A stretch of DNA of 64,000 nt from an uncultured Thermoplasmatales archaeon (GCA_964396185.1 CAYNEI010000001.1:76014-140013), one strand, 5' to 3'. Positions 1-18,417 are shown, numbered from the stretch's first letter. Program-made: numbers and translations. Notes: generated by a model not told the origin, from the letters alone.

Positions 1-1737
1 CCAACCACCGGGCTCAAAGCCTCTCCGGTTGCATGCGTGTTCGCCCCCCACTTCACGACCCTATCCGGCGCGCTTCCGGGTGACTGCCAGGACATCAGCG
101 AGTTCAACCAGTTCTTCGCTGAGTCCGAGTCATCCACCTACGTGGCCAACAAGCCGGGCTGGTACATCCTGACCGGCTTCATCGACTCGGGCGCGCCCAT
201 CGCGTCCACCATCACCAAGACCGGTGACCGCACGGACGTGAGCCGGATCTTCTCGTTCTACGTGAACCCGGTCAACGTCGACGAGGCCCTCTGGTGCGCG
301 GCCCCGATGATCTCGACCGACGCCGACGACCAGCTCGACACGGGCGTGGAGCAGGTCCTCGACGAGGACGGCAACCCCACCGGTGACTGGGAGGTCACAG
401 GAGACTTCGACTACCTCGTCGAAGCCCACGACCTCGACATCTACACGAGCGATCTCGGCGGCGTCCAGCGCACACTCAACGAGCTGCAGCGTGACATCGT
501 GGACATGCTCCCCGACGATCTGATGCCACCGGAGGTTGAGCAGGCCATCGAAGACGCGAACGACCTCGCTGGGCAGACGCTCGACGACGCAGACAGCACC
601 CTCGACCCCGTTGTCCAGCGTGTTGCAGCGACGAAGGGCAACACCGCCGAGCGCAACGCGCCTGGCGACAACTCCTGGACGCTCACAGGCGAGACCGCAG
701 CCCAGCGCTGCACCCTCTCCAACGGGCTCGTCGAGGACACAAGCGAGCCGAACCAGCTGTACAACCGGATCCAGGCCACGATCCAGAGTACGGCTGTCGG
801 ATCGATCCCCGGCGGTGTGGGTGGCATCCCCGTCGTCGGAGGCGTGAACTTCCCGGGTCTCGGCGGCGACGCGCTGCGTGACTTCACGGACCTGGACGGG
901 GACGGTCTCCCGACGAGCGCCGACGAGCAGGGGTTCAACCCTTGGCACCCTGAGAGCTACTCCTTCAGTGGCTCCATCGCGGTCATCGAGGACCGCGACG
1001 GCGACGCTGAGTTCGACGGCTGCCCTGCCGGCGAACAGCCCCCAGGTCCCGGCCAGGACCGCTGTGCCGCGCGCCTCTACTTCGACTACACGAACGACAA
1101 GGCGCTGCGAGACAACAGCGAGACGATCCCCGACTTCATGGACCAGAACGGGTTCCGGGACGGTACCGGCATGTACGCCGTGCTCAAGGTCTCCGGACCC
1201 GTGGCGATCACGTCCACGGACACCAACGACCTGACGCAGGACAACTCCCCCGCGACGATCCTCGATCGGACGCGTGTCCTCAGTGGGGATGGTCTCCACT
1301 GCATCGTCGCGCTGAGCACGGGCCTTGAGAACCAAGACGACCGGTTCATCGACATCGTCGGTGCCAGCGGCACAGGCGACGACGAGATCACGGACGCGCT
1401 CTGCGGTGAGGACGTCACCGGCGAGACGCACCTGCTCCGCGACGGCTTCTTCGAGGGCGACGGCGCGGGCGGCTTCAACGCTGCGTTCTCCTGGACGCCG
1501 CTGGAGCCCCACCCGGACGCCTTGGACGCCGCGGGTGATGGTCTGACCGTGAACTACCTCGTGACCGTCGACGGGGAGACCGGCGACGACATCACGAAGG
1601 CGAACCTGAAGCTCGGAACCCACGGCATCGACGACCCCACGGTCGTCAAGGTCTGGGACAACGGCGACGGCACAGAGGACATCTCGTACCTCTGGACCGA
1701 CTTCGACCCGTTCACGTCCGACCCGGACGGCGTCTGA
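1..1737 (+). CDS. Secreted acidic protein, tandem-paralog family, copy 1 (5' end lies left of the window)
   Basis: Frame 1 is open from nt 1, and the track start at 37 is an internal GTG. ..ACVFAPHFTTLSG..ISEFNQFF..ANKPGWY..YVNPV..EAHDLDIY..EQGFNPWHPE..DRCAARLYFDY.. aligns colinearly with the C-terminal two thirds of the complete copies. Stop TGA at 1735-1737 is followed by a hairpin plus T-rich tract. Confidence 0.85.
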   Translation, partial: PTTGLKASPVACVFAPHFTTLSGALPGDCQDISEFNQFFAESESSTYVANKPGWYILTGFIDSGAPIASTITKTGDRTDVSRIFSFYVNPVNVDEALWCAAPMISTDADDQLDTGVEQVLDEDGNPTGDWEVTGDFDYLVEAHDLDIYTSDLGGVQRTLNELQRDIVDMLPDDLMPPEVEQAIEDANDLAGQTLDDADSTLDPVVQRVAATKGNTAERNAPGDNSWTLTGETAAQRCTLSNGLVEDTSEPNQLYNRIQATIQSTAVGSIPGGVGGIPVVGGVNFPGLGGDALRDFTDLDGDGLPTSADEQGFNPWHPESYSFSGSIAVIEDRDGDAEFDGCPAGEQPPGPGQDRCAARLYFDYTNDKALRDNSETIPDFMDQNGFRDGTGMYAVLKVSGPVAITSTDTNDLTQDNSPATILDRTRVLSGDGLHCIVALSTGLENQDDRFIDIVGASGTGDDEITDALCGEDVTGETHLLRDGFFEGDGAGGFNAAFSWTPLEPHPDALDAAGDGLTVNYLVTVDGETGDDITKANLKLGTHGIDDPTVVKVWDNGDGTEDISYLWTDFDPFTSDPDGV

Positions 1738-1760
1738 CCGGGGCCTTCGGCCCCAACGGC

Positions 1761-1808
1761 TTGGCCCGCGCACCGCGCGCGGGCCAAGGTCTCTTTCTTT
1801 TCATCTCT
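1761..1808 (+). terminator. Hairpin plus pyrimidine/T-rich tract downstream of paralog copy 1
   Basis: ggcccgcgc (1763-1771) pairs with gcgcgggcc (1777-1785), followed by ggtctctttcttttcatct. The same structure recurs after copies 2, 3 and 4. An extra small hairpin ggggcc-ttc-ggcccc sits at 1740-1754. Confidence 0.55.
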
Positions 1809-1845
1809 CGAGAACGCCAGCGGTTGCTCTCTCCATCCAGCCTCC

Positions 1846-1884
<39 letters not shown>

Positions 1885-2081
1885 CAGCAACCTCCAGCGC
1901 GTCGCTGGCGCACCGTATCGCGGCGCAGCCGCGCTCCATTCGTTGAGCGTGCGCCGGACGCCAACCGCACGGCACTAAACGCTCAACAGTCATTGAGTAC
2001 CATGCGAACACTTATCATGCGTGAGAGGCACTTCCAAGCGGGCTGGCTGGCCGGGAGAGCTAGCTGGCCCTGGAGGTACAC

Positions 2082-4601
2082 ATGAGGCGACTACTCGTCA
2101 TCCTGACAGGCTTGCTTATGATCACCATCGGTGCTGGGCCCGCGTTCGCGGAGCACAACGATGTCGGCTCCCAGTTCGTGGTGGGCAACCCCGACCCCAC
2201 ACCGACTGAGACCGCAGACGGGGATGTCTCTGATGATCTCCGGCTCATCTACCACGCCGGCGGCTCGCTGCCGTCCCCGGCTGGCGCCGGCACGGTCCCC
2301 CGGATCTCGCCCGCTGATCAGAGCGGGCTCGGCCTGGGCGATTGGATCGGGTTCATCGACGGTGTGATCGAGCACCCGGGACCCGCGTTCAACCAGTGCA
2401 TCCTGCTCGCTACGTGCGGGACGACCACAGACCCGCTCTACCGGGCCAACCCCGCCCCCGATGACACGGAATGCGAAGGGCCCGAGGACAACCAGAAGCT
2501 CGGAGAGGACCCCACGGATCCAAGCGACGATCCCTGTGACGGTGGCGACCACCTCATGCCCATCACCTTCTGGCCACCTGTGCGCGTGCAGAACCACGCC
2601 ATGGACGTCTTCAGCGACCCGGAGGATGATGGAAGCGGCTTCAGCTACCCCGGCGTCTACGGCTACTACCTCTACCTCTTCGGTGAGGGTAGTGGCGTGG
2701 CCGCGGGCGAGGGCTCGTTCAGCCACCTCGATGGGTTGTGCGAAGCCCCCACGGGCCACTATGCCCCCGGCTCCGACAAGCCGTGCAAGCTAATCACCAA
2801 AAAGGATATCGAAGACCACCGCGAGCCGGGTCAGCGGGCGGCTGTGTGCATGTACCGACCGTTCTTCAGCACGCTTAGCGGCGGATCCGACGACCAGGCC
2901 TGTCCGAACATCAGCGAGTTCAACCACGTCACGACGGAATCGGACTCGAGCCTCTACATCGCCAACAAGCCCGGCTGGTACATGTTCACGGCCTCGATCA
3001 ACCAGTTCGGATCTCTGTTGTCCAACAACAACGTCCCGACCTTCGGCGGGAACCACACGAACATCGCGGTCGGCGGCTCCTACCACTACTACGTGAACCC
3101 GGAGCGTCCGGCCAGCCACCTCTGGTGCATGGGCCCCCCCATCGCGACGCTAGCCGCGGATGGGATCGACACGGGCTTGGAGCTCGTGCAGGACCCAGAG
3201 ACAGACGAGTGGCTCGGCTGGGAACTCGAGGAGATCGGGTTCAACGTCGCGGCCCACGACATCGACGTTTACATCGCCAACGAGGAGACCTCTGGCGCGG
3301 CGGACACCACCTTCGAGCTCGTCAACGAGGTGCTCGACACGGTCCCGGCCCTCCCACCTGAGGTCCAGGAGACCATCGACGACGTCCAAGACATCGTTGA
3401 TCAGCTCGGTGACGACGCCGATGACACGCTAGGTCCGATCAACGACGCTCTCGATGAGACCGTCGATCGGTTCGCGGTCAACGTCGGCCAGAGCGAGGAG
3501 CCCAACCGGCCAGGCGACAACTCCTGGAGCCTCTCGGCCGCCAGCCCAGCGACCCAGTGCTCAACCTCCGACGGTCTCACCGAGGGTGAGGGGAGCACCA
3601 CGTTCTACAACCGCAACCAGGCAACCCTGGACAGCGAGGTTGTGGACTCGATCCCCGGCGGGGTCTGCTGCGTGCTTGGACTCGGCGTGAACTTCCCAGG
3701 GCTCGGCGGCGACGCCCTGCATGACTACACCTACACCGACGAGGACGGCCTCCCGGCCGGTGCAAGCGAACAGGGCTTCAACCCCTGGCACCCCGACCGC
3801 TGGACCTTCGACGGCTCACTGCTCGTGGTCGACGACCTCGACGACGACCAGAACTTCGACGGGTGTCCGCCTGGCGACGACCCGCCAAGTCCGAGTCAAG
3901 ATCGCTGCGCGGCGCGCATGCCCTTCGACGTCTACAACGACGACGCGATCCGGGAGGAGGACACCGGAGAGACCATGGGCGACTTCGCCCGCAGCCAGGG
4001 CTTCGCTGACCCCACCGGCGTTTACGCCGTGCTCATGGTCACCGGCCCCGTGATGGTGCTCCCCGAGGACGCCCCTGGCCAACTCGAGGAAGTCGGCCCC
4101 TTCACGGAGGACATTCGCGTGCTCGACAGCGAAGGACAGAACTGCGTCGTCTTCACGAGCACCGGTCTGCTCGATCTCGGTGACTTCGGCCAGGGGGAGC
4201 GATTCCGCACCCTCATCGGACTCGAGGACGACACCGCCGACCTGACCACCGTACGCGACCACCTGTGCGGTGACGTCACGGGCGACAGCCTGCTCATCGA
4301 CGACGGCTTCGACGATGCAGCGGGCTCAGGCGGGTACAGTCTCGACTTCGACTGGATCCCGCTGGAACCCAAGCCCGAGGCCCTTGAGGACGACGACGAC
4401 AGCCTCAGCGTGCACTACCTCGTCACCGTCGGCTCCGACGGCGACGACAAGACGCGCTCGAACATCGATCTCGGCTCTGCTGGGCACACCGAGGACACGG
4501 AAACCGTGGCCAAGGTGTGGGGCGACGAGATCGGCAGCATCACCTACGAATGGGTGGACGTCGAGCTCTTCGACAGCGAGCCGGGTCAGCCCGAGGACTG
4601 A
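2082..4601 (+). CDS. Secreted acidic protein, tandem-paralog family, copy 2 (839 aa)
   Basis: GGAGGT lies 4 nt upstream of ATG. N-terminal signal peptide is MRRLLVILTGLLMITIGAGPAFA|EHNDVG. Family motifs: GDWIGFIDGVIEHPGP, YLYLFGEGSG, NISEFN, ANKPGWY, YYVNP, AHDIDVY, EPNRPGDNS, EQGFNPWHPD, DRCAARMPFD, ELFDSEPGQPED. Very acidic, with no C-terminal anchor. Confidence 0.9.
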   Translation: MRRLLVILTGLLMITIGAGPAFAEHNDVGSQFVVGNPDPTPTETADGDVSDDLRLIYHAGGSLPSPAGAGTVPRISPADQSGLGLGDWIGFIDGVIEHPGPAFNQCILLATCGTTTDPLYRANPAPDDTECEGPEDNQKLGEDPTDPSDDPCDGGDHLMPITFWPPVRVQNHAMDVFSDPEDDGSGFSYPGVYGYYLYLFGEGSGVAAGEGSFSHLDGLCEAPTGHYAPGSDKPCKLITKKDIEDHREPGQRAAVCMYRPFFSTLSGGSDDQACPNISEFNHVTTESDSSLYIANKPGWYMFTASINQFGSLLSNNNVPTFGGNHTNIAVGGSYHYYVNPERPASHLWCMGPPIATLAADGIDTGLELVQDPETDEWLGWELEEIGFNVAAHDIDVYIANEETSGAADTTFELVNEVLDTVPALPPEVQETIDDVQDIVDQLGDDADDTLGPINDALDETVDRFAVNVGQSEEPNRPGDNSWSLSAASPATQCSTSDGLTEGEGSTTFYNRNQATLDSEVVDSIPGGVCCVLGLGVNFPGLGGDALHDYTYTDEDGLPAGASEQGFNPWHPDRWTFDGSLLVVDDLDDDQNFDGCPPGDDPPSPSQDRCAARMPFDVYNDDAIREEDTGETMGDFARSQGFADPTGVYAVLMVTGPVMVLPEDAPGQLEEVGPFTEDIRVLDSEGQNCVVFTSTGLLDLGDFGQGERFRTLIGLEDDTADLTTVRDHLCGDVTGDSLLIDDGFDDAAGSGGYSLDFDWIPLEPKPEALEDDDDSLSVHYLVTVGSDGDDKTRSNIDLGSAGHTEDTETVAKVWGDEIGSITYEWVDVELFDSEPGQPED

Positions 4602-4619
4602 GCCCGGCTCGCTACTTGC

Positions 4620-4668
4620 TTGGCCCGTGCGCACCGCGCGCGGGCCAAAGCTCTCTCTTTTCATCTTT
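4620..4668 (+). terminator. Hairpin plus T-rich tract downstream of copy 2
   Basis: ggcccgtgcgc (4622-4632) pairs with gcgcgcgggcc (4636-4646), loop acc, then ctctctcttttcatcttt. Confidence 0.55.
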
Positions 4669-4773
4669 CAAGAACGACAGCGGTAGCGCTTCCCAGCGAG
4701 CCTCTACCGCTCCGTAGGCGCGCTTCATCGCGGCCCCACCCCGAACCGTTGCTTCAACACCGCCACAGCGAAC

Positions 4774-4779
4774 TTTATA
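4774..4779 (+). promoter_or_regulatory. TATA-box-like element (TTTATA) upstream of paralog copy 3, immediately followed by the palindrome ACTCA-T-TGAGT
   Basis: aactTTTATActcattgagtgg lies about 60 nt upstream of the GTG at 4839. It is the only AT-rich hexamer in this GC-rich spacer. Confidence 0.45.
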
Positions 4780-4838
4780 CTCATTGAGTGGTGTGCCACA
4801 TGTGAGGCTGGCTCATGCGAGCCACCAGAGGTGATGTA

Positions 4839-7331
4839 GTGAGGCGAATATTGATCCTGATCACGTGCACAGCTATGCTCTTGGTAGGCGTCGGACCGGC
4901 GCTTGCCGAGCACAACGACATCGGCGTCCGCTACGGGGTCGGCAACCCCGACCCGGGGATCGCCGAGGATGCCTCCGGGGACGTCTCGGACGATCTTCGG
5001 TTGATCTACCACGCCGGCGGCAACCTCCCCGCACCTGCAGGCGTGGGCAACCTACCCCGCATCTCGCCCGCGGACCAGTCCGGTCAGGGCCTGGGGGATT
5101 GGATCGGGTTCATCGACGGTGTCATCGAGCACCCCGGGCCCGGCTGGAACCGGTGCTTCATCATCAACCCGAGCTTCGCGTGCGAGCCGCAGCCCGACCC
5201 CCTCTACCGGCTCAACCCGGCCGCCGAGGACGAGGGATGCGAAGATCTGGCTGACAACACAGAGCTAGGCGAGGACCCCGCGAACCCCGACGACGACCCG
5301 TGCAGCGGCGCGGATCACAGGAGCTTTATCGAGTTCTGGCCCCCGGTTCGCATCCAGAACCACAAGATCGACGTCATCAGCGATCCGGACGAGGATGGAA
5401 GCGGCTTCACCTTCCCCGGCAACTACGGCTACTACGTCTACCTCTTCGGCCAGGGCACCGGCCCCGCGGCCGGGACCGGCGACTTCGAGATGCTCCCTGA
5501 CGACCTCTGCGAAGCGCCCACGGGCCACTTCGCTCCGGGCTCCAACAAGGACTGCAAGCTCATCACGCCTGTGGACCTGGACGTCGACCTGGAGCCCGGC
5601 CAGCACGCTGCTGTGTGCATGTACCGGGCGTTCTTCACGACGATCAGCGGGGGCTCCAACAACAACGCCTGCCCGAACATCAGCGAGTTCAACGCGTGGC
5701 GTGAGCCCTCGGACTCGAGCTTCTATCTCGCCAACAAGCCGGGCTGGTACATGGTGACGCGCTCGAACAACGACTTCGCGTCGCTCGACGCCTACGACAA
5801 CGTGGTCACGTTCGGCGGCAACCGGACCGACATCGCCCGGGGTGGGGCCTACCACTACTACGTCAACCCCGTGCGCCCGGCCAGCCACCTCTGGTGCGTG
5901 GGACCACCAGTCGCAACGACCGCCAGCGACGGGCTCGACAGTGGGCTCACCCTCCTGCGCAACGAGGACGACTCCTGGGCCGGCTGGGAGCTGGACCGCT
6001 CCATCGAGTACCGCCTGGAGGCCCACGACGTCGACGTTTACCTTGCCTTCGAGGAGACCGACACCCTGTTCGATGAGGCCGACCGGCTTCAAGAGGACAT
6101 CGAGGACAGCGTGCCGCCGATCGTCGGCGACCTCCTCGGCCTGGTAGGCGACACGATCGACGCTCTCCAGGACGAAACAGCGCCCGTCACGGATGCGGTC
6201 GGCAGCCTCACCTCCCGGTTGGGTCCCAACGTCCCGAACGGAGCCGAGCCCAACCGGCCCGGAGACAACTCGTTCACCTTGAACGAGGACTCCCCCTCCA
6301 GCGAGTGCAGCCCGGTCAACGGCCTGACCGATGCGAGTGACCCCACGACGTACACGAACTACATCCAAGCCGTCGTAGACAGCGTCGTCGCTGACTCGAT
6401 CCCTGGCAGCGTGTCCGGCAACAACATCGCGGGCTTCGGTGGGGATGCCCTCCACGACTACACCTACCTGGGCAGTGACGGTCTCCCGGCAGACACCTCC
6501 GAGCAGGGGTTCAACCCCTGGCATCCGGACCAGTGGGCGATCTTCGGGAGCATCCTCACAATCGACGACCTCGACGAGGATCAGCGCTTCGATGACTGTC
6601 CGCCTGGTGACGACCCGCCGAGTTCTAGCGAGGACATCTGCGCTGCTCGGATGCCCTTCGATCTCTACAACCCGGATGCGCTGCGGGACGAGGGGAACAT
6701 GGGAGACAAGATGCGGCTCGAGCGCTTCGGTGACCCCACGGGCATGTACTTCGTGCTCCGTGTCACGGGCCCCACCGTGATCCTCAACGAGAACGAGGTT
6801 CTCGAGGGGGTCCCGGCTGCTGTCCAGGACTTCGAGACGGTACCGGACTTCCAGCTCTTGGAAGGCGAAGGTCAGCACTGTGTCGTCGGCACCAGCATCG
6901 GGCTGCTCGACCTCGGCGCCTTCGGCCAAGGCGAGCGGTTCCGCCAGCTCCACGATGTGGACGCCAACGCGAATCCCAGCGAGTTGCTGGCCAAGATCTG
7001 CGACGGTTCCGATGGCACGCATCTGCTCATCGAGGACGCCTTCGCCGATGCGCCCCAGGCCGGCTCGTTTACCAGCCAGGTCCAGTGGATCCCGCTGGAG
7101 CCCAAGCCCGAGGCCCTGGAGAACGACGACGACGGCGTCGACGTCCACTACGTCGTCACCGTCGGTCCTGGCAGCGATCTCCGAACCGAGACCAACTTGA
7201 AGCTCGGCACCCACGGCCCCGACGACCCGACGGTCGCCAAGGTCTGGACCGAGGACGGCTCCAACGACGTCACCTACAAGTGGACCGACCAGGAGCTCTT
7301 CGACAGCGAGCCGGGTCAGCCCTCGGACTGA
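4839..7331 (+). CDS. Secreted acidic protein, tandem-paralog family, copy 3 (830 aa from GTG 4839; the track's ATG 4815 is an alternative start)
   Basis: GTG 4839 gives MRRILILITCTAMLLVGVGPALA|EHNDIG. This is homologous to the MRR.. N-termini of copies 2 and 4 and is preceded by GAGGTGAT. All family motifs are present. Confidence 0.88.
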   Translation: MRRILILITCTAMLLVGVGPALAEHNDIGVRYGVGNPDPGIAEDASGDVSDDLRLIYHAGGNLPAPAGVGNLPRISPADQSGQGLGDWIGFIDGVIEHPGPGWNRCFIINPSFACEPQPDPLYRLNPAAEDEGCEDLADNTELGEDPANPDDDPCSGADHRSFIEFWPPVRIQNHKIDVISDPDEDGSGFTFPGNYGYYVYLFGQGTGPAAGTGDFEMLPDDLCEAPTGHFAPGSNKDCKLITPVDLDVDLEPGQHAAVCMYRAFFTTISGGSNNNACPNISEFNAWREPSDSSFYLANKPGWYMVTRSNNDFASLDAYDNVVTFGGNRTDIARGGAYHYYVNPVRPASHLWCVGPPVATTASDGLDSGLTLLRNEDDSWAGWELDRSIEYRLEAHDVDVYLAFEETDTLFDEADRLQEDIEDSVPPIVGDLLGLVGDTIDALQDETAPVTDAVGSLTSRLGPNVPNGAEPNRPGDNSFTLNEDSPSSECSPVNGLTDASDPTTYTNYIQAVVDSVVADSIPGSVSGNNIAGFGGDALHDYTYLGSDGLPADTSEQGFNPWHPDQWAIFGSILTIDDLDEDQRFDDCPPGDDPPSSSEDICAARMPFDLYNPDALRDEGNMGDKMRLERFGDPTGMYFVLRVTGPTVILNENEVLEGVPAAVQDFETVPDFQLLEGEGQHCVVGTSIGLLDLGAFGQGERFRQLHDVDANANPSELLAKICDGSDGTHLLIEDAFADAPQAGSFTSQVQWIPLEPKPEALENDDDGVDVHYVVTVGPGSDLRTETNLKLGTHGPDDPTVAKVWTEDGSNDVTYKWTDQELFDSEPGQPSD

Positions 7332-7644
7332 GCCCGGCTCACGAACCCTCGGCCCGCGCGGGGTGCGCGCGGGCCGAGATCTCTCTTCTTCTCCTCTCTC
7401 AAGCACGGCAGCGGTCGCTCTCGACCAACTTCTAGCGCACCGAGCGGCGCGCTTGATCGCGGCCGCAGGCCGCGAACCCCTCGTTGAGCGCGCACGAGCA
7501 CTGAGCGTGCCGAACTCAACGCTCAATACTCACTGAGCCTCTCGCAAAAGCTCATGCTGGCGTGACATGTTTTGGCACGTCGGAGGCTGTCCGCTCCTGG
7601 AGCTGTGCGCTCCGTGACCGGAGCGGTCGCCTCGGAGGTACCAC
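7332..7644 (+). repeat. Inter-paralog module, copy C
   Basis: Contains the terminator hairpin, the ctctcttcttctcctctctc tract, ggtcg-ctct-cgacc, the gcgcgcttgatcgcggccgcaggccgcga palindrome (7457-7475), the cgttgag..ctcaacg hairpin, actcactgag, and a nested 5'UTR hairpin at 7591-7626. Confidence 0.75.
7349..7400 (+). terminator. Hairpin plus pyrimidine-rich tract downstream of copy 3
   Basis: tcggcccgcgcg (7349-7360) pairs with cgcgcgggccga (7366-7377), loop gggtg, then ctctcttcttctcctctctc. Confidence 0.55.
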
Positions 7645-10173: not shown

Positions 10174-10190
10174 GCCGGCTCGCTGAACCC

Positions 10191-10240
10191 TTGGCCCGCG
10201 CGAGGTGCGCGCGGGCCAAAGTTCTCTCTTTTGTTCTCTC
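10191..10240 (+). terminator. Hairpin plus T-rich tract downstream of copy 4
   Basis: ttggcccgcgcg (10191-10202) pairs perfectly with cgcgcgggccaa (10208-10219), then gttctctcttttgttctctc. Confidence 0.55.
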
Positions 10241-10273
10241 AACCACGGCAGCGGTCGCTCTCGACCAACGTCT

Positions 10274-10314
10274 AGCACGCCGACGGCGCGCTTTATCGCG
10301 GCCGCAGGCCGCGA
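10274..10314. repeat. Left 41-bp direct repeat flanking the AbiEi-like cassette
   Basis: agcacgccgaCggcgcgcttTatcgcggccgcaggccgcga versus 11142-11182 agcacgccgaAggcgcgcttGatcgcggccgcaggccgcga, with 2 mismatches in 41 nt. Contains the palindrome (a)tcgcggcc-gca-ggccgcga(t). Confidence 0.9.
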
Positions 10315-10338
10315 TCGCTGGCTCCGTAAGCGAAATCC

Positions 10339-10350
10339 TATATCATTAAA
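10339..10350 (+). promoter_or_regulatory. AT-rich TATA-like element (tatatcattaaa) upstream of the AbiEi-like gene
   Basis: The only AT-rich patch here. It lies 10-21 nt before GTG 10360 and 25-36 nt before ATG 10375. The spacing fits a leaderless transcript starting at or near 10375. Confidence 0.4.
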
Positions 10351-10359
10351 GGACATATT

Positions 10360-11010
10360 GTGTCCCCTACTGATATGACTTCAAGCGCCGTGGCCTGGGA
10401 GTCGCTCTTCCGGGCGGACAAGACCGTGGTCACCAGTGAGGAGGTTCATCGAGCAGCCGAAAGGCTCGGCAAGGACCCCGCGCACACGGTCCGGCACCTG
10501 CGCCGGGAGGGCTATCTGCTGCCTCTGTTCAAGGGCTACTACTACGTTCGAAGCCCCGAGGAGGTTACGCTCGGAACCGCGCGCTACAACCCGCTCGAGC
10601 TCTTCGCGCTCGCCGCCGAGGCGAAAGGGATCGGTGCCTGGTACTTCGGCCTCCACACGGCGCTCTCGCTGAACGGGTTGACGCACGAGGACCGGCGCGA
10701 GGAGACCGTCATCTCCGATCACCTCTACCGGATCAACGGCGTGAAGGTCGGCGCGAAACGGTTCGTTATCCACAAATGGAGCGAGGATCTCCTCGGGTTC
10801 GGGGTGACCGAGCGTGGCCTGGTCCGGTTCAGTGATCCTGAGAAGACGGTGCTAGACTTCGCCTACTGGGACCACTGGCGCACACGCAAGAGCCACGCGC
10901 CCACGTGCGTCTGGCTCGACCATATCGACGGCGTCGACGCCGAGCTCCTCCGGGAGTACCTCGAACACTACCCCAACATGGTTCGAGAGATGGTGGAGGG
11001 GCGCGTGTGA
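10360..11010 (+). CDS. abiEi: AbiEi-like (type IV TA / abortive-infection antitoxin family) putative transcriptional regulator; alternative start ATG 10375
   Basis: The N-terminal wHTH-like segment VVTSEEVHRAAERLGKDPAHTVRHLRREGYLLPLFKGYYYVRSP matches the AbiEi pattern (..L.R.G.L.rl.rG.Y..), with a C-terminal domain of appropriate size. Composition is much less acidic than the neighbours. A GTGA overlap joins it to a downstream ORF fragment. Confidence 0.6.
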   Translation: MSPTDMTSSAVAWESLFRADKTVVTSEEVHRAAERLGKDPAHTVRHLRREGYLLPLFKGYYYVRSPEEVTLGTARYNPLELFALAAEAKGIGAWYFGLHTALSLNGLTHEDRREETVISDHLYRINGVKVGAKRFVIHKWSEDLLGFGVTERGLVRFSDPEKTVLDFAYWDHWRTRKSHAPTCVWLDHIDGVDAELLREYLEHYPNMVREMVEGRV

Positions 11011-11108
11011 AGAACCACGAGCCCATCGATGAGGTCGCCTTCGAGGAGCACCGGCAGCATGTCGTAGAAGTGCTGGCAGGTGTGGCGGATCGGCTAGGTG
11101 AGACATAG
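11007..11108 (+). pseudogene. 33-codon remnant, possibly the N-terminus of an AbiEii-type nucleotidyltransferase toxin
   Basis: GTG at 11007 overlaps the upstream stop (GTGTGA), which is typical TA coupling. VKNHEPIDEVAFEEHRQHVVEVLAGVADRLGET then hits TAG, and the sequence continues directly into a collapsed copy of the paralog 3' module (cccttggcc..gcgc..cctttg). Similarity to AbiEii N-termini is judged by eye only. Confidence 0.3.
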
Positions 11109-11319
11109 CCCCGGCCCTTGGCCGCGCTATCCCGTCCTTTGAGCACGCCGAAGGCGCGCTTGATCGCGGCCGCAGGCCGCGAGCCCTTGGCCGAGCGCGG
11201 TTCTCACGCCAGGTCAGTCACCGCGCTCACCAGGGGAAGACTTTTGTCCCCTCCCGGCCATCGCTGGCTCGCGGAGGCCGGAGTGGGAGTTCTGGCACTC
11301 CGTATCGGAGGTAGGCCAG
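11108..11319 (+). repeat. Inter-paralog module, copy D', collapsed 5' part plus 3' half leading into copy 5
   Basis: ccccggcccttggccgcgctatcccgtcctttg looks like a deleted version of the terminator hairpin/T tract. The second copy of the 41-bp repeat follows, then gcgagcccttggccgagcgcgg (compare gcgaacccctcgttgagcgcgc in copy C) and GGAGGT before ATG 11320. Confidence 0.55.
11142..11182. repeat. Right 41-bp direct repeat flanking the AbiEi-like cassette
   Basis: See 10274-10314. The palindrome tcgcggcc-gca-ggccgcga is at 11164-11182. Confidence 0.9.
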
Positions 11320-13773
11320 ATGAGGCACACGCACATCGTACTGATCGCGCTAGCGCTGATGTTAACCACCCTTGGACCAGCGTTGGCTACGCACAACAAC
11401 GCCGGCATGCGGATGGCTATTGGGAACCCGGATCCCACGCCAGACGCCGAGCCGAACACGCCAGACGACATGCTACCGATCTACCATCTGAGCGAGGTCC
11501 TGGATGAGGACATCTCGCCGGACATCTCGTTCTGGGGCGACTACCCCCGGGTCAACCCGCCCGAGCAGAGCGGGCTCGGCCTCGGTGGGGAGGACGGATG
11601 GATCGGCTACATCAATGGCATGGTGGAGTACGTGGGCGCGGCGTTCTCCCGCTGCCTCGGCTTCGAGTCGACGGCCTGCGAGAACGATCCAGACCCGCTC
11701 TACCGGGTCAACCCGGCAGCCGACGACGACGACTGCCAAGGCCCGGAGGACAACTTGGACCGCGGCGAGGACGACACAGACCCAAGCGACGATCCCTGTA
11801 GCGGCGAGGGCCATACCCAGCGAGTCGACGCCTGGCCCGCCGTACGCATCCAGGGCGAGAAGGCCAACCAGCCCCTGGACCAGGGCCGGCCTGGAAGCGG
11901 CTTCCTCTTCCCAGGCACGTACTCGTTCTACCTCTACCTCTTCGGTGAGGGCAGCGGGCTGGCAGCCGGCGAGGGTGTCTTCGACTACCTGCCCACGAAC
12001 CTCTGCGAGGTCTCTGGCGGGCTCGGCGGCGCCTACGCGGACGGCTCCGACAAGGCCTGCGACATGATCCTGCCCGAGGACATCGCCACGGATGACCGCA
12101 CGGACCTGGAGAGCCCAACTGGCTCCGAGCAGCGCACGGCCATCTGTATGTTCGCGCCCCGCTTCGGGACCCTGTCTGGGGCCAGTGATGTGGGTGCTTG
12201 CGGGAACATCATGGAGTTCAACCAGTTCTTCAGCGACACGGACTCCTCGTTCTACCTGGCCAACAAACCAGGCTGGTACATCCAGAGCGGGTTCATCGAC
12301 CCGGACGCCTCGCTGCTTCCGGTGACCACGTTCTTCACGAAGGGCGGGGTCAGGGACGACATCGCCCAGGTGTTCAGCTTCTACGTGAACCCCGTGCGGC
12401 CGGCCAAGACGGCCATCTGCGCCAACCCGCCCATCGCGACCAACGCGCCGGACGAGCTGGACACGGGCATCGAGCTGGTCGATGAGAACGACCCGGAAGG
12501 TGCATGGGTCCAGACCGAGGACTTCCACTACCTGGTCGAGGCCCACGAGGTGGACATCTACACCGGCCAGCCCACGCCGATCATCGGTGGCGAGGATGTG
12601 GAGACAGACCGGGCTGATCCCTTGATCGACCAGGTCAACAACTTCCTCGACAACCCGCCCCTTCCACCGGAGGTCCTGCCCATCGTGGACGCTGTCCAGT
12701 CGGCCGCCGATCGCGCCGACCCGACGGTCGGTACCGACGCAGAGCCCAACGCGGCCGATGACGACACGCTTGAGCTCGCCGTGGCCACGGAGACGGGTCC
12801 ATGCCCGCCCACGGGTCTCTCGCGCGATGCCGGTGGCGAGGAGGTGTTCTTCTACAACTACATCCAGTCCAGCATCTTCAGCGCTGGCACGGGTGTGACC
12901 CTCCACGACTACACGTACACCGACGAGCAAGGCCTGCCCGCCGAGTCCGACGACCAGAGCTACAACCCCTGGCACCCGGACACCCACAGCTTCTCTGGGA
13001 GCCTCTTCGGCTTCCTCGATCTGAACGACAACGAGGCCTTCGACGGGTGCCCGCCCGGTGCCGACCCGCCCACCGCGGGCTCACCGGATCTGTGCACAGC
13101 GCTGTTGCCATGGGACATCTACAACGAGGATGCCGTGCGCGACAGCGAGCAGACCATGGGTGAATGGGCGCGCGAGCGCGGGTTCACCGACCCCACGGGC
13201 ATGTACTTCGTGCTCGACCTCACCGGCCCCGCGGTCGTGACCGCCGAGAACGTGCCGACGAACACGGAGCAGGCTGGCGAGTCCCAGGACCGGCTCCGCA
13301 TCACGGTTGGCGAGGGCCAGCACTGCTTCGTGGGCACCAGCAAAGGCCTGCTCGACAACGACTTCGGGCAGGGCGACCGGTTCGCCGAGATCATCGGTGC
13401 GGCTGGGCTCTCGGACAACGAGATCACCGACGCGCTGTGCCCGGACGCCACCGGCGAGCCGCACGTCATCAAGGACGCCTTCGATGACGGCAGCGGCGCT
13501 GGCGGCTTCAGCGCGGACGTCGAGTGGACCAAGACCTCGTCCAGCGCGGCCGGCTTCGACCAGACCGAGGGCGACAGCCTGGAGGTCACCGCGGTGCTCA
13601 CCGTGGGCCCAGGCGTGGACGAGATCACCGCCGACTCCCTGAAGCTCGGCTCGCTCGACCACGACGAGAACACGCCCACCGTCGAGAAGGTCTGGGGCAG
13701 CGGTGACACCCGTGCTGTCACCTACGTCTGGACCGACAGCGATCCGTTCAACTCGGATCCCTCGGCGCAGTAG
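11320..13773 (+). CDS. Secreted acidic protein, tandem-paralog family, copy 5 (817 aa)
   Basis: GGAGGT lies 7 nt upstream of ATG. Signal peptide is MRHTHIVLIALALMLTTLGPALA|THNNAG. The family motifs are retained (YLYLFGEGSG, IMEFNQFF, ANKPGWY, YVNPVRPA, EAHEVDIY, NPWHPD, PDLCTALLPWDIYN). Its C-terminus is of the copy-1 type (WTDSDPFNSDPSAQ). Confidence 0.9.
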   Translation: MRHTHIVLIALALMLTTLGPALATHNNAGMRMAIGNPDPTPDAEPNTPDDMLPIYHLSEVLDEDISPDISFWGDYPRVNPPEQSGLGLGGEDGWIGYINGMVEYVGAAFSRCLGFESTACENDPDPLYRVNPAADDDDCQGPEDNLDRGEDDTDPSDDPCSGEGHTQRVDAWPAVRIQGEKANQPLDQGRPGSGFLFPGTYSFYLYLFGEGSGLAAGEGVFDYLPTNLCEVSGGLGGAYADGSDKACDMILPEDIATDDRTDLESPTGSEQRTAICMFAPRFGTLSGASDVGACGNIMEFNQFFSDTDSSFYLANKPGWYIQSGFIDPDASLLPVTTFFTKGGVRDDIAQVFSFYVNPVRPAKTAICANPPIATNAPDELDTGIELVDENDPEGAWVQTEDFHYLVEAHEVDIYTGQPTPIIGGEDVETDRADPLIDQVNNFLDNPPLPPEVLPIVDAVQSAADRADPTVGTDAEPNAADDDTLELAVATETGPCPPTGLSRDAGGEEVFFYNYIQSSIFSAGTGVTLHDYTYTDEQGLPAESDDQSYNPWHPDTHSFSGSLFGFLDLNDNEAFDGCPPGADPPTAGSPDLCTALLPWDIYNEDAVRDSEQTMGEWARERGFTDPTGMYFVLDLTGPAVVTAENVPTNTEQAGESQDRLRITVGEGQHCFVGTSKGLLDNDFGQGDRFAEIIGAAGLSDNEITDALCPDATGEPHVIKDAFDDGSGAGGFSADVEWTKTSSSAAGFDQTEGDSLEVTAVLTVGPGVDEITADSLKLGSLDHDENTPTVEKVWGSGDTRAVTYVWTDSDPFNSDPSAQ

Positions 13774-13788
13774 CTGCGGCACACCTTC

Positions 13789-13830
13789 GGTGGGGGCCTG
13801 TGGCCCCCACCGATGCTCTTCTCTTATTCT
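13789..13830 (+). terminator. Hairpin plus T-rich tract downstream of copy 5
   Basis: ggtgggggcc (13789-13798) pairs perfectly with ggcccccacc (13802-13811), loop tgt, then gatgctcttctcttattct. Confidence 0.6.
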
Positions 13831-14074
13831 ACCGAGGACTGGGCAGTGCTGGCTCTCCCCAGCCGACCTCCGCGCGCCTCCGGCGCGCCAGCGCGACGAA
13901 GTCTCGCTCCGCTGCACGTTAGACATATCAACCACGTGAGTGAACGCTCTTACCGTGGGGACGACTCGGTGAGCTTGGCGCCCGTTGCCGTGGCCGAAAC
14001 GATGAAGTACGCCACGGTTTTAGGGCCGCCGAAACCTTTGGGCCGGCGCACTGTGCCCGGTCCTGGGAGGCCCC

Positions 14075-16504
14075 ATGACCCGGAGACGAGCTCACACCGA
14101 CACCGCGGCCAAGCCTGCCTGGACGATCGTGCTGCTCGTGGTTGCGCTGCTGGCCACGCCTTTGCTGGCAAGCGTGAGCGCCACCCACCACGCCGTAGGC
14201 GCGCGCGTGGCCGTCGGCAACCCGGACCCTGGCCCCAGCGATGAGCCGGATGTGCCGCCTGGGCTGACCCCCGTGTACCACGCGGATGGCGACGCGGATC
14301 TGCTCGCGCTCCGCGGGGATCAACCGCGCAGCTCGCCCTTGGACCAGTCCGGGGCCGGGCTCGGGGCGTGGATCGGCTTCCTGGATGCGGTGCTCGAGCA
14401 GACCGGCCAGGCCTCAAGCACGTGTCTGGCTGTCATCCAGGGGATCTGCAACCGGCCCGATGATCCGCTCTACCGCGCTGATCCCGCCGATGGGGATCCT
14501 CGCTGTGAGACCATCGAGCAGCGCCTGGACCCGGAGGAGTGCACCGGGGACAGGCACACGTTCTTCGTGGATGTCTGGCCGGGTGTGCGCGTCCAGCCTC
14601 ATCGCAGCGACCCTGTGGGGGGCGAGGCCTCGGGCTTCCTGTACCCAGGCAGCTACAGCCTCTACGTGTACCTCTTCGGCGAGGGCTCAAGCGTGCTTTC
14701 TCCCGGCCAGGGTCCGTTCTCGCACCTTGAGTCCGAGCTGTGCGAGCAAGCCACCGGGCTGGAGACCTGCCAGCTGATCACGCCTGGTGATCTGCGCTCG
14801 CATGCCTCCAAGAGCTCAGCGCTGGGCTCGCCCCAGCAGGCCGGCATCTGCTTCTACGCCCCAGCCCTGCACCCGCTCAGCCAGATCACGACCACCAGCG
14901 GCTGTCCGATCAACGGGGATGTGAGCCTCTTCCTCGGGGAGACGGGCTCGAGCCTCTACATCGACAACCAGCCCGGCTGGTACGCCCGCCCAGCACTCAT
15001 CGAGCCCACGGGTTCGCTGCAGCCCAGCGAAGCCCGCAGCACCCTGGATGGCGTGCGCTCGGACATCTCGCGCGTGATCCATACCTACGTCAACCCGGTC
15101 ACCCCCCACCCATCCAACTGGTGCCTGGCACCGCCCATCGCCACGACGGCGGACGACGAGATCGCCACCGGGCCCACGGACTCCTTCATCGTCGAGGGCC
15201 ACGACCTGGACGTCTACCTGGCCGTGGCACCTGATGCCCAGGACCCCGTCGAGACCGTGGCCGGCCAGGCCGAGGCCCTGGTGAGCCAGCTTACAGACCT
15301 CCTGCCACCAGAGCTTGAGCAAGCCGTGGACGAAGTCGAGCAGGCCAGTGGGGACGTGAGCGCGGCAACCCAGGCCGCCCTGGAGCGCTTCGGGCCCTTC
15401 CAGCCGGCCAGCGCGGAACCGAACACGCCCGATCCCCGTGAGGACACGCTGCGCTTGATCGCCGAGCAGGACGCTCAGCGCTGCGATCCCGCCCTCGGGC
15501 TCTCACCTGATGGCGTCTCGCGAACGGCCTACAACTTGGTGGATGCCCGTATCGCTCAGCGCGCGGCTGTGGGCGTCGTGACCTTCGCGGAGGTGCACAC
15601 CCCGACACCTCAGGCCAGCTCCGAGCTGGGCCTCTCAGCCAGCGGGCCCGAACACCTGCCTGGGGAGCAGCCCCTCAAGGATCCTACGGTGCTGGATGAG
15701 GATGGCCTGCCGGCGCGTTCCAGCCAGACCGAGGGTGGTGCTTGGTACCCGAGCAGCTGGACGTTCGAGGGCGATCTCAACGTGTTCCTCGACACCGACG
15801 AGAACGGCGCCTTCGCCGGATGCCCGGCCAACGGCCAGGCGCCTAGCCCTGAGGCACCGGATATCTGCGCCGCCCAGCTCATCTGGGATGCCTACAACCC
15901 GCGGGCCTGCCTGGACCCCTCCTGCCTGGTCACCCTGGGGGATGCGGCCCAAGACCGTGGCTACACGGACCCGCTCGGTCTCGTGGCAACTGTTCGCACC
16001 CTTGGACCCACCATGGTCCAGCACCAGCACTCGCTGGAGACCTGGGTGCTCGGCGAGGAGGATCCTGCCAGCGAGGTCTGCATCGTGGGCACCAGCGAGG
16101 GCCTGCTCGCGCCTGGTACGCTCCAGCACGAGCGCATGCTGGCCCTCAACGGGCTGGGCTCGACCGCCACGGACGACGCGTTCCTGGAGGCTGCTTGCCC
16201 GGGGGCCGACGACGCGCTGCTCGTGCGGGATGCCTTCGGTACCCAAGGCCGGCTCGGCGAGTTCGGGGCGCTGTTCACGTGGACCCAGCTCTCCGCTGAG
16301 CCTGCAGCCACCAGCCAAGAGGGCGTGGGCGAGCTGGTGCTGGAAGCGGTCATCACGACCGCGCGCGTCACCGACGACACCGCCAGCAACCTGCGCCTAG
16401 GAGCGGATGGGACCACCACCACCCTGGCCGAGACATGGGGCAACGGGGATCGGACCTACATCTGGGCCGACGTGGATCCCTTCGTGTCGAGCCAGAGCAG
16501 CTAG
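14075..16504 (+). CDS. Secreted acidic protein, tandem-paralog family, copy 6 (809 aa, most divergent)
   Basis: GGGAGG lies 4 nt upstream of ATG. Signal-like N-terminus is MTRRRAHTDTAAKPAWTIVLLVVALLATPLLASVSA|THHAVG. Motifs are recognisable but diverged: DPLYRADP, YVYLFGEGSS, DNQPGWY, YVNPVTP, EGHDLDVY, AEPNTPD, PDICAAQLIWDAYNP, WADVDPF. Confidence 0.85.
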   Translation: MTRRRAHTDTAAKPAWTIVLLVVALLATPLLASVSATHHAVGARVAVGNPDPGPSDEPDVPPGLTPVYHADGDADLLALRGDQPRSSPLDQSGAGLGAWIGFLDAVLEQTGQASSTCLAVIQGICNRPDDPLYRADPADGDPRCETIEQRLDPEECTGDRHTFFVDVWPGVRVQPHRSDPVGGEASGFLYPGSYSLYVYLFGEGSSVLSPGQGPFSHLESELCEQATGLETCQLITPGDLRSHASKSSALGSPQQAGICFYAPALHPLSQITTTSGCPINGDVSLFLGETGSSLYIDNQPGWYARPALIEPTGSLQPSEARSTLDGVRSDISRVIHTYVNPVTPHPSNWCLAPPIATTADDEIATGPTDSFIVEGHDLDVYLAVAPDAQDPVETVAGQAEALVSQLTDLLPPELEQAVDEVEQASGDVSAATQAALERFGPFQPASAEPNTPDPREDTLRLIAEQDAQRCDPALGLSPDGVSRTAYNLVDARIAQRAAVGVVTFAEVHTPTPQASSELGLSASGPEHLPGEQPLKDPTVLDEDGLPARSSQTEGGAWYPSSWTFEGDLNVFLDTDENGAFAGCPANGQAPSPEAPDICAAQLIWDAYNPRACLDPSCLVTLGDAAQDRGYTDPLGLVATVRTLGPTMVQHQHSLETWVLGEEDPASEVCIVGTSEGLLAPGTLQHERMLALNGLGSTATDDAFLEAACPGADDALLVRDAFGTQGRLGEFGALFTWTQLSAEPAATSQEGVGELVLEAVITTARVTDDTASNLRLGADGTTTTLAETWGNGDRTYIWADVDPFVSSQSS

Positions 16505-16713: not shown

Positions 16714-18417
16714 CTAGTTGGATCGCACGCGCCGAGCCACCAAGCCCACCAGGCTGGCCAAGAGCACGGTGAGCAAGGCGCCTGGACCCGGGGCTCCGTT
16801 GGAGCCGCCGTCGTCCTCGCCGTCGTCCCCGTCCTGGCCATCGCCACCGTCGTTGGAGGGCGGGTCGCTGGATTGCGGGACGAGCGTCACGGTGTCCAGG
16901 GTGTGGCCCTCGTGGACCAGGCTCACCTGCACCGAGCCTTGGTTGGTGGGCACCGTAGCGGTGACCAGGCCCGAGCTCTCCTTGCTGACGGGCACGATGT
17001 CCCCTCCTGGCACGATGATCTCGGCCGAGGCTAGATCTGCGAGCTCCACCAGGAAGGTCTGCTGCGACTGATCGAACAGCGTACCGTTTCCGGGGCTCAA
17101 GATGTGGGGCCCGGTCTGGTTGGCTGAGCTCTGGCCGGGCTCGCCCGTGGTACCATCCCCGGTGCTGGATTCGCCAGGGATCGTCTCGGCCTGGGCCGGG
17201 TGCACGCGGATGGGGTGCGTGGCCTCGACGGCGTTGCCGTTGCGATCCACGCCGCTCACGGTGATCGAGTAGTTGCCTGGCTCCAGGAACGTGTGGGTGG
17301 TCTTGGAGCCGACCTGCTCGCTGGAGTCGTCACCGAAGTTCCAGCGCAGGCGCGCGAGCTCTTCGGCGGGCTCGGCGCGGAACTGGGTGCGCACGTCCTC
17401 GCGCACGTGGTCTGGAGCGAAGATGGTGAGATCCGTGGGCTGCTCGAGCACGCGCAGGAAGAGCGTGCGTCGCTGGGAGGCCGAGGCGTTGTCGGTGACC
17501 GTGAGCACGACCGGGTAGCGGCCGGGCTCGTCGTAGCTGAGCTCGATGGTCGGGCCGTCCAGGTGCGTACCGTTGTCCAGGCCCCACTCGAAGCTCTCGA
17601 TCGTACCATCGGGGTCCGTGGTCCCCGAGGCGTTGAGCACGATGGTGTCGCCCACGAGCGCGGGTTTGGGCGTGACGTCGACACGGATGTCCGGGCGCTG
17701 GGTCAACACCGCGTCCACGAGCACCCAACCTGGCTCCAGGCTGGCCTCACTGTCCCAGGAGGCCACCCAGTAGCGCATGGCCGGGCTGTAGGCGAACCGG
17801 GTCTTCTCGGCGGCGGGCTCCGGTGTCGAGGTGTTGCGCGAGCTCGTGGTGACCTCGTAGGTCTCGAACGTGCCGAACGGTACCGTGGTGTTGGTGGGGT
17901 CGTCCGAGACGCGCGAGGTGTAGATGCGCTCGCCCTGGGAGGTGCCTGCGGGCTGCCCGTTGAGCACGCGGCTCGTGCTCACCGAGGAGAGCACCTCGTC
18001 GTCCCGGTGCTGCATGATCTTGTACCACGGGATGGGCACTGCGGGGTCGAAGCCGTTGACCTGGCGTAGGTGGTCGCTGCCCGTGTAGATGTCCGTCTGC
18101 ACGAACACGGTTTTGAGAGTGTCCACCCGGATCTCGGCCACGGAGATCACCACGCTGCCGTTGGCCGACGTGGTGGTGCGCACGCTCCATGTCTCCATGG
18201 CCCCCCGGGAGCCGGGGCTTTGCACCTCGTGGCGGTCGATGATCTTGGTGACGGAGCGCTGGCCGTCCTGGTTCTCGAAGACCCAGGTCATGCCCTCGTG
18301 CCAGTTGGGCGAGCTGGGCCGTTCTGCGCTGGCTGTGGTGAGCGTGAACGTCGCCGCTAGCAAGAGCAGCGTGAGGATGGCTGGCGTGAGGCTGCGCTGG
18401 GAGATCACCGACACCAT
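16714..18417 (-). CDS. Anchored surface protein with two PKD domains (567 aa)
   Basis: Signal peptide is MVSVISQRSLTPAILTLLLLAATFTLTTASA. PKD signatures are ASGTTDPDGTIESFEWGLDNG..GRYPVVLTVTDN and WNFGDDSSEQ..GNYSITVSGVDRNGN. An acidic Gly/Asp linker is followed by the C-terminal APGPGALLTVLLASLVGLVARRVRSN anchor. Confidence 0.9.
   Translation of the reverse strand: MVSVISQRSLTPAILTLLLLAATFTLTTASAERPSSPNWHEGMTWVFENQDGQRSVTKIIDRHEVQSPGSRGAMETWSVRTTTSANGSVVISVAEIRVDTLKTVFVQTDIYTGSDHLRQVNGFDPAVPIPWYKIMQHRDDEVLSSVSTSRVLNGQPAGTSQGERIYTSRVSDDPTNTTVPFGTFETYEVTTSSRNTSTPEPAAEKTRFAYSPAMRYWVASWDSEASLEPGWVLVDAVLTQRPDIRVDVTPKPALVGDTIVLNASGTTDPDGTIESFEWGLDNGTHLDGPTIELSYDEPGRYPVVLTVTDNASASQRRTLFLRVLEQPTDLTIFAPDHVREDVRTQFRAEPAEELARLRWNFGDDSSEQVGSKTTHTFLEPGNYSITVSGVDRNGNAVEATHPIRVHPAQAETIPGESSTGDGTTGEPGQSSANQTGPHILSPGNGTLFDQSQQTFLVELADLASAEIIVPGGDIVPVSKESSGLVTATVPTNQGSVQVSLVHEGHTLDTVTLVPQSSDPPSNDGGDGQDGDDGEDDGGSNGAPGPGALLTVLLASLVGLVARRVRSN

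Follow-up and report, generated by a model that had tools for sequence, protein, structure and literature searches.

Archaeal surface-layer (S-layer) glycoproteins, such as those of the Haloferax volcanii csg type and of the paralogous S-layer families of methanogens, are exported, very acidic, and large proteins, which can also occur as sets of paralogues near other envelope genes; S-layer proteins are usually Cys-poor and weakly conserved. Lineage-specific tandem families of surface proteins consist of co-oriented paralogues, each with its own ribosome-binding site, and their copy number varies between genomes. For metal sites built at a protein N-terminus, precedents are the histidine-brace copper proteins (lytic polysaccharide monooxygenases, LPMOs; CopC; PmoB) and the X-His and X-X-His motifs of the amino-terminal Cu/Ni-binding (ATCUN) type, while envelope gene clusters are represented by the MoxR/DUF58 (von Willebrand factor A-, vWA-like)/DUF4129-transglutaminase type. 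Here, a 64000-nucleotide stretch of DNA (CAYNEI010000001.1:76014–140013; the whole stretch is called the window, and positions are counted from its first nucleotide) was analyzed, which carries at 1–16504 bp a tandem array of six paralogous genes for acidic, Cys-containing proteins with predicted signal peptides. The initial annotation, made from the sequence alone, suggested that these genes represent a recently expanded family of secreted proteins at the edge of a surface/defence island. As judged from gene order on independent contigs, a conserved cell-envelope gene cluster ends with the family genes, the copy number of which varies.

Results

Six colinear plus-strand open reading frames (ORFs) with 809–842-aa products were found where the initial annotation had placed them, and all the motifs it had listed are visible in the alignment. 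The window copies align over their full length with more than 120 invariant columns; identity to copy 2, which serves here as the reference for residue numbering in the family, is 38–72%, and pairwise identity among the copies is 32–72%. Matches of the family hidden Markov model (HMM) in the window were confined to these six ORFs (E values from 1e-123 to 1e-192), and since the model picks these six alone at such values, the relationship is far beyond chance. Copy 1 (1–1737 bp) is represented by its 3′ 579 codons (HMM E value 3.5e-123), its 5′-end being open at the window edge; by BLAST, its full product, starting upstream of the window, is P0004 (831 aa) or P0007 (845 aa), with 100% identity over 578 aa. 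The products of copies 2 (2082–4601 bp, 839 aa), 3 (4815–7331 bp, 838 aa), 4 (7645–10173 bp, 842 aa), and 5 (11320–13773 bp, 817 aa) are identical to P0001, P0003, P0002, and P0005, respectively, and P0001–P0005 were assigned by BLAST to copies 2, 4, 3, 1, and 5 in this order. In copy 3, an alternative GTG at 4839 bp yields a product that starts with VRR/MRR as in the other copies, and this GTG may be the real start because it then matches the paralogues. Copy 6 (14075–16504 bp, 809 aa) is the most divergent and the least acidic one (Asp plus Glu 14%): HH replaces HN in its N-terminal motif, its signal region is longer, the helical acidic segment and a part of the 361–380 loop are missing, and no exact counterpart was found in protein searches.

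Four further paralogues, P0006, P0008, P0009, and P0010, are encoded on the same 291347-bp contig. P0006 was considered as the product of copy 6, which was rejected because BLAST showed it to be a separate paralogue, 37–41% identical to every window copy; P0008, P0009, and P0010 are likewise distinct from the window copies. The contig, and hence the genome, thus holds at least ten paralogues of the family. The description of the locus as an array of six thus needs correction: a gene of another kind splits copies 4 and 5, and four more paralogues lie on the same contig. A short assembly contig (L004, SRR12687320) carries P0006, then small genes, and then yet another paralogue, and this gene order indicates that the array continues beyond the window, again broken by small genes. 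Between the two paralogues of L004, at 2651–3375 bp, a gene with a faint DUF2281 match adjoins a 137-aa ORF, and the two were read as a putative toxin–antitoxin pair.

Asp and Glu make up 14–19% and Lys and Arg 4–5% of the window copies, the computed isoelectric point (pI) is ~4.05, and each copy contains 14–16 Cys. Signal peptides were judged by eye and the cleavage position was taken from the −3/−1 rule. The N-termini of 40+ members show a charged n-region, a hydrophobic core, and an A-x-A site, corresponding to a Sec-type signal peptide, and the pattern A-x-A-[TSEGHNM]-H-N was present at the predicted cleavage site in all of the members with an intact N-terminus (38/38). In copy 2, the predicted signal-peptidase site is located at 2145–2159 bp (codons 22–26, F-A-E-H-N), where A-F-A is followed by Glu and then by His25-Asn26. 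The column counts were 38/38 for His25, Gly29, and Arg74, 37/38 for Asn26 and His58, and 38/39 for His157. Because the invariant His stands at a fixed distance from the cleavage site, the free N-terminus is suggested to matter for function. Twelve Cys are invariant across the family alignment, a number that would be enough for six disulfides. The loop DDLDDDQNFDGC (3831–3866 bp, residues 584–595 of copy 2) follows the pattern D-x-[DN]-x-[DN]-G-x-F-D-x-C, the strict form of which is present in 26 of 47 family proteins; it resembles calcium-binding loops and may bind Ca2+. The absence of a C-terminal anchor, claimed by the initial annotation, was confirmed: the C-termini of the members are acidic and hydrophilic, with no hydrophobic tail or membrane anchor. 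Neither a lipobox nor a conserved twin-arginine motif was seen, the RR varying to MRH, MRT, or MKK. Taken together, the sequence features are those of a Sec-exported protein that is predicted to be soluble or peripherally attached. Conservation over 39 members is spread along the full length, with variable patches at residues 301–320, 361–380, 401–460 (a three-helix acidic segment), 521–540, and 661–680.

The assignment of the family to no named domain stood up in all of the libraries searched. Pfam gave no family at E ≤ 1 for five window copies and none at E ≤ 0.01 for all 39 aligned members, nor any for the short divergent members, and in NCBIfam the same number of window copies (five) had only a sub-threshold match (E 0.27, 11.6 bits vs. 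the 191-bit cutoff). The best phmmer match in the PDB had an E value of 0.27, and the 39-sequence profile had no match there at E ≤ 10. PADLOC contains no family matching copy 2; its sole match was the inserted 216-aa ORF described below. AlphaFold2 run with the 39 sequences gave a model with a mean predicted local distance difference test score (pLDDT) of 73, exceeding 85 over much of residues 640–760, and a predicted template modeling score (pTM) of 0.64, while the six local copies alone gave a pLDDT of 31. The Foldseek search with the model, which the initial annotation had proposed, returned no match at E ≤ 0.001 in either the PDB (best E 0.93) or BFVD (best E 0.18). The insignificant top matches were mostly jelly-roll-type barrels (cyclic nucleotide monophosphate-, cNMP-binding domains, cupins, and picornavirus capsids), which is at most a hint on one domain. 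Current family and structure libraries contain no representative of the family and probably none of its fold.

The envelope cluster to which gene order ties the family was seen both in the window and on other contigs. In the window, a run of overlapping or abutting minus-strand genes, many of them for giant surface proteins, extends over ~36 kb from 63853 to 27841 bp. It begins with a 2187-aa surface protein (57290–63853 bp), a 4102-aa surface protein with CARDB domains (44994–57302 bp), and a 1326-aa surface protein (41017–44997 bp), and continues with the conserved cluster: a 2027-aa protein with TSP3, Big, MG, and DUF4129 domains (34933–41016 bp), a DUF4350 protein (33887–34936 bp), a DUF58 protein (32670–33890 bp), a 1153-aa membrane protein with immunoglobulin (Ig)-like domains (29182–32643 bp), and p394, a 394-aa secreted acidic protein belonging to a second rare family (27841–29025 bp). 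On contig L006, genes for a giant DUF4129 protein, DUF4350, DUF58, a ~1160-aa protein, and a p394 homologue (8256–9413 bp) are directly followed by a family gene, all in one direction. The same is true of L013, where DUF58 is cut by the contig end and the ~1160-aa gene and the p394 homologue (4043–5341 bp) directly precede the family gene in the same direction. L001 begins with a p394 homologue (1–1212 bp), which directly precedes five family copies, and L012 carries the five cluster genes in the same order up to the contig end. The window cluster proteins are 33–53% identical to their counterparts on L006 and L013. The p394 family is rare (13 clusters at 90% identity among 5.8 billion sequences). 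The motif YYEFYRGDT is invariant in it, and a weak resemblance to an Ig-like domain is limited to the last ~45 residues; one p394 paralogue was found on L011 in an unrelated metabolic context. That p394 might be a distant relative of the family was rejected, since hhalign matched the signal peptide only, at a probability of 0.6%. A literature search on the DUF58/DUF4350/DUF4129 trio gave nothing useful, and neither a MoxR ATPase nor a transglutaminase core was detected in the window.

A word-indexed protein search, run with one sequence or with the 39-sequence profile, returned only proteins of the same contig, and the wider family was reached only by the exhaustive HMMER profile search. The latter, addressing the distribution check that the initial annotation had proposed, identified 44 members among 1.84 billion cluster representatives. 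Most of the members are full length (760–1030 aa), 34 of them matched at E < 1e-30, and all are acidic (pI 4.0–4.5) with 12–22 Cys. The sole taxonomically labelled source was a metagenome-assembled genome (MAG) named “uncultured Thermoplasmatales archaeon” (CAZOQA01), which contains arrays of 5, 2, and 1 copies on three contigs at ~25% identity; one of its contigs also carries the genes of aIF2-beta and of the pyruvoyl arginine decarboxylase (PvlArgDC). Two short metagenome contigs contain at least three tandem family copies each. The GC content is 66–73% at all family loci and 68% in the window. A GGAGG site precedes all family genes including those of the archaeal MAG, thus a bacterial host, read from these sites alone, was rejected. 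Sequence patterns of the close group gave nothing in GTDB genomes, a collection that lacks the window contig itself, and in JGI metagenome contigs, those of the distant group gave nothing in JGI metagenome contigs, and neither set matched in IMG/VR, that is, the family was not found on viral contigs. PLSDB contained no DNA match. As far as these searches reach, only a handful of genomes, high in GC and encoding very acidic proteins, contain the family.

The age of the duplications did not agree with the recent expansion proposed by the initial annotation. Nonsynonymous (dN) and synonymous (dS) substitution rates were calculated by the Nei–Gojobori method (NG86), the estimates being near saturation with a GC content of ~0.9 at third codon positions (GC3). 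Even the closest pair, copies 2 and 4 (72% protein and 77% DNA identity), showed a dS of 0.65 with a dN of 0.20 (dN/dS 0.30), while the dS of the other pairs was 0.8–1.1, that is, near saturation, with ratios of 0.45–0.70. These values indicate old duplicates on which purifying selection acts. As arrays are also present in members of other genomes that are only ~25% identical, the multi-copy state appears to be old or recurrent. Sliding windows of pN/pS, the proportions of nonsynonymous and synonymous differences, gave no clear signal of positive selection. Copies 2 and 4 have diverged unevenly, several-fold faster in their N-terminal than in their C-terminal half: pN is 0.13–0.31 over residues 1–476, 0.03–0.07 over most of 457–791, and 0.16–0.18 around 617–711. 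Since pS is similar along the gene (~0.3–0.5 throughout), gene conversion was rejected as an explanation for the conservation of the C-terminal half, and the asymmetry points to different constraint on the halves.

The expression signals named by the initial annotation are in place. GGAGG, a Shine–Dalgarno sequence, is located 5–10 nt 5′ of the start codon in every window copy, and GC-rich hairpins with T/C-rich runs, resembling terminators, lie 3′ of copies 1–5. These hairpins were found on the plus strand at 1760–1788 bp (12 bp stem, T/C-rich tail) after copy 1, at about 4620–4648 bp (imperfect) after copy 2, at 7348–7378 bp (13 bp stem) after copy 3, at 10191–10219 bp after copy 4, and at 13787–13813 bp after copy 5. 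The array spacers are homologous to one another, consequently the duplicated unit is the gene plus its flanks. A conserved intergenic palindromic element, GGCGCGCTTnATCGCGGCCGCAGGCCGCGA, occurs ~150–190 nt upstream of start codons at 7446–7475, 10285–10314, and 11153–11182 bp, with a degenerate form at 4717–4746 bp, and the motif AACGCTCAA occurs ~100–130 nt upstream of starts at 1978–1986 and 7518–7526 bp; both are candidate regulatory sites. Rfam had no match in the window, the intergenic elements included. Between the hairpin of copy 1 and the upstream region of copy 2 lies a perfect (CT)17.5 microsatellite (1848–1882 bp), which is not present in the homologous spacers and the length of which could change by slippage.

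The gene that splits copies 4 and 5 belongs to an inserted unit on the plus strand (10274–11187 bp), 868 bp in size and bounded by 46-nt direct repeats (10274–10319 and 11142–11187 bp, 91% identical), which are copies of the palindromic element from other array spacers. It encodes a full-length AbiEi-type antitoxin of 216 aa (10360–11010 bp; PADLOC 9.7e-42, and a weak match to AbiEi_4), and no gene of the AbiEii partner (toxin) lies beside it.

The array and the envelope cluster are separated by genes for a PKD protein, an M78/DUF4411 pair, two unknown proteins, and a MazE-like ORF. Toxin–antitoxin-type genes around the arrays include the M78 peptidase with DUF4411 (18433–20270 bp, plus strand) and the MazE-like ORF (27243–27920 bp, minus strand). 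The placement of the array at the edge of a surface/defence island is correct insofar as it adjoins a surface-protein region with toxin–antitoxin- or defence-like genes, and it can be refined by the observation that the same envelope cluster recurs on independent contigs with family genes directly after it. The C-termini of several neighboring surface proteins consist of a Pro/Gly motif followed by a hydrophobic helix and an Arg-rich tail, one example being GAPGPGALLTVLLASLVGLVARRVRSN. Such C-termini were seen in the minus-strand proteins encoded at 16714–18417, 41017–44997, 44994–57302, and 57290–63853 bp; they look like sortase-type sorting signals, and CTERM models match them weakly (JDVT-CTERM 1.9e-4 and GC_trans_RRR 0.014; MYXO-CTERM-like).

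Discussion

The reading that we tentatively prefer, and hold with limited confidence, is that the family consists of exported, disulfide-stabilized extracellular proteins that act at the envelope together with the products of the conserved cluster, that a metal-binding or catalytic role is likelier for them than a purely structural one, and that the paralogues have different specificities. Cleavage by signal peptidase would leave a mature N-terminus of the form X-His-Asn, and the protein, once exported, would fold and acquire disulfides and probably Ca2+ loops. It may then remain attached, through non-covalent contacts, to envelope components whose genes are adjacent. The N-terminal His could form a metal site with His58 and His157, making the proteins metal-binding or catalytic members of the envelope instead of inert coat subunits, and the many old paralogues would differ in specificity. 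In view of the GC content, GGAGG sites, and acidity that all loci share with the MAG labelled Thermoplasmatales, a salt-adapted archaeon near this MAG is the most likely host. A bolder version, which we consider quite unlikely, takes the family for a new extracellular metalloprotein fold, in which the centre made by the free X-His-Asn N-terminus, His58, and His157 would belong to an enzyme (redox or hydrolytic) or to a metal scavenger; the protein would act on the envelope in halophilic Thermoplasmatota and be assembled with the DUF58/DUF4350/DUF4129 cluster.

Several findings weigh against the preferred reading. The His is at predicted mature position 2, while in the known histidine-brace proteins it is at position 1, and the model has its lowest confidence at residues 21–40, the very segment concerned (pLDDT 31–47). 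Pfam, NCBIfam, PDB, and Foldseek offered no known domain and no structural analogue for the family. The array of the window is inverted and separated from the cluster by 11 kb that contain other genes, and the family genes of L007 and L009 stand in unrelated contexts. Finally, tRNA and Rfam searches of the window found no rRNA, tRNA, marker gene, or Rfam match, so the host taxonomy is indirect.

The proteins may instead be S-layer or surface-coat subunits, the paralogues being alternative coats held by the ~1160-aa or the giant proteins, with divergent copies letting the surface vary against viruses or symbionts. The size of ~85–100 kDa, the acidity, and the export signal fit this explanation, as do the conserved adjacency to membrane-anchored and giant surface proteins and the multi-copy arrays in several genomes; a ribosome-binding site of its own for each window gene and a strong hairpin after copies 1–5 are what is expected of separately expressed abundant proteins. 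The missing anchor would need a partner. However, the invariance of 12 Cys, of the N-terminal His-Asn, and of many polar residues is at odds with a coat subunit, and the window copies contain only 0–3 N-glycosylation sequons. The model matched no solved structure in Foldseek, and no hypervariable, positively selected region was seen. In view of both sides, a coat function seems rather doubtful.

Secreted nutrient-acquiring enzymes, that is, a new polymer hydrolase or oxidase with paralogues for different substrates, would be another explanation, in which the nearness of the cluster is a lineage-specific accident. The invariant His, Asp, Asn, Ser, and Arg residues lie mainly within the first ~400 positions, exo-enzymes are typically secreted and contain disulfides, and the faster N-terminal divergence of copies 2 and 4 at similar pS fits changes of specificity; the members on L007 and L009 also speak for independence from the cluster. 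Nevertheless, neither a catalytic motif nor a fold match was found, and the order of p394 followed by a family gene on three independent contigs, together with the neighborhood in the window, is hard to call an accident. We regard this explanation, too, as having a minor chance of being correct.

The initial annotation considered diversified binding or effector proteins, and such a role is neither shown nor excluded. In its narrower form, namely secreted effectors or toxins against competitors or hosts that were diversified by an arms race, it agrees with the numerous, divergent paralogues and with the interspersed toxin–antitoxin- or defence-type genes (AbiEi, the putative DUF2281-like pair of L004, and the nearby M78/DUF4411). 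This form is very improbable, as Pfam, NCBIfam, and PADLOC showed no immunity genes, secretion-system genes, or toxin domains, purifying selection extends over the whole length, and viral contigs yielded no member. That the ORFs are non-functional, being high-GC artefacts of the kind that appear as many long spurious ORFs on the opposite strand of the window, or decaying pseudogenes, is effectively refuted by cross-genome conservation, since 12 Cys are invariant across members from other genomes that share only 25% identity; in addition, none of the six frames is interrupted, the copies are colinear, their signal peptides are conserved, and dN/dS is below 1.

Should the family be associated with the envelope, both it and its ~400-aa partner would be candidates for major components of the surface in an uncultured group whose proteins are very acidic. 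The family also links the widespread DUF58/DUF4350/DUF4129 gene set of unknown function to specific exported, cargo-like proteins, which offers an experimental handle. If it is true that the N-terminal His site binds metal, the family would provide a new extracellular metalloprotein scaffold. On a modest reading, it is a piece of protein dark matter, with 44 members among 1.84 billion representatives and no fold match, yet with at least ten conserved copies in one genome.

Comparison with known systems

Like the archaeal S-layer glycoproteins, the members of the family are large, very acidic, and exported, and they form a set of paralogues near other envelope genes. Unlike them, they have no C-terminal anchor or sorting signal (PGF-CTERM or transmembrane) and no fold or sequence match, whereas invariant Cys and polar residues are many and glycosylation sequons few. 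The chain of Ig-like domains that characterizes the Halobacteria-type S-layer was not seen, as Foldseek gave no PDB match, the presence of csg entries in the library being unconfirmed.

The likeness to histidine-brace and ATCUN-type proteins is an analogy that may serve as a lead only: the distance between the family His and the cleavage site does not vary, and other His residues of the chain are invariant as well. The His falls, however, at mature position 2 and not 1 as in the histidine brace, the cleavage site itself being predicted, and this pattern would fit an N-terminal X-His motif. Foldseek detected no structural match to the LPMO, CopC, or PmoB folds, while His58 and His157 are conserved in the family.

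The neighbors of the family genes, DUF58, DUF4350, and DUF4129 in a fixed order, recall the MoxR/DUF58/DUF4129-transglutaminase envelope clusters. The window differs from these in having no MoxR ATPase or transglutaminase core, and neither the family nor p394 is a known part of them. As in the lineage-specific tandem families of surface proteins, the paralogues are co-oriented, have their own ribosome-binding sites, and vary in copy number between genomes; in contrast to the generic case, the duplicates here are old (dS ≥ 0.65) and under purifying selection, neither recent nor hypervariable. In kind, then, the locus is a familiar one, encoding lineage-specific, tandemly amplified exported envelope proteins, and the family itself is new.

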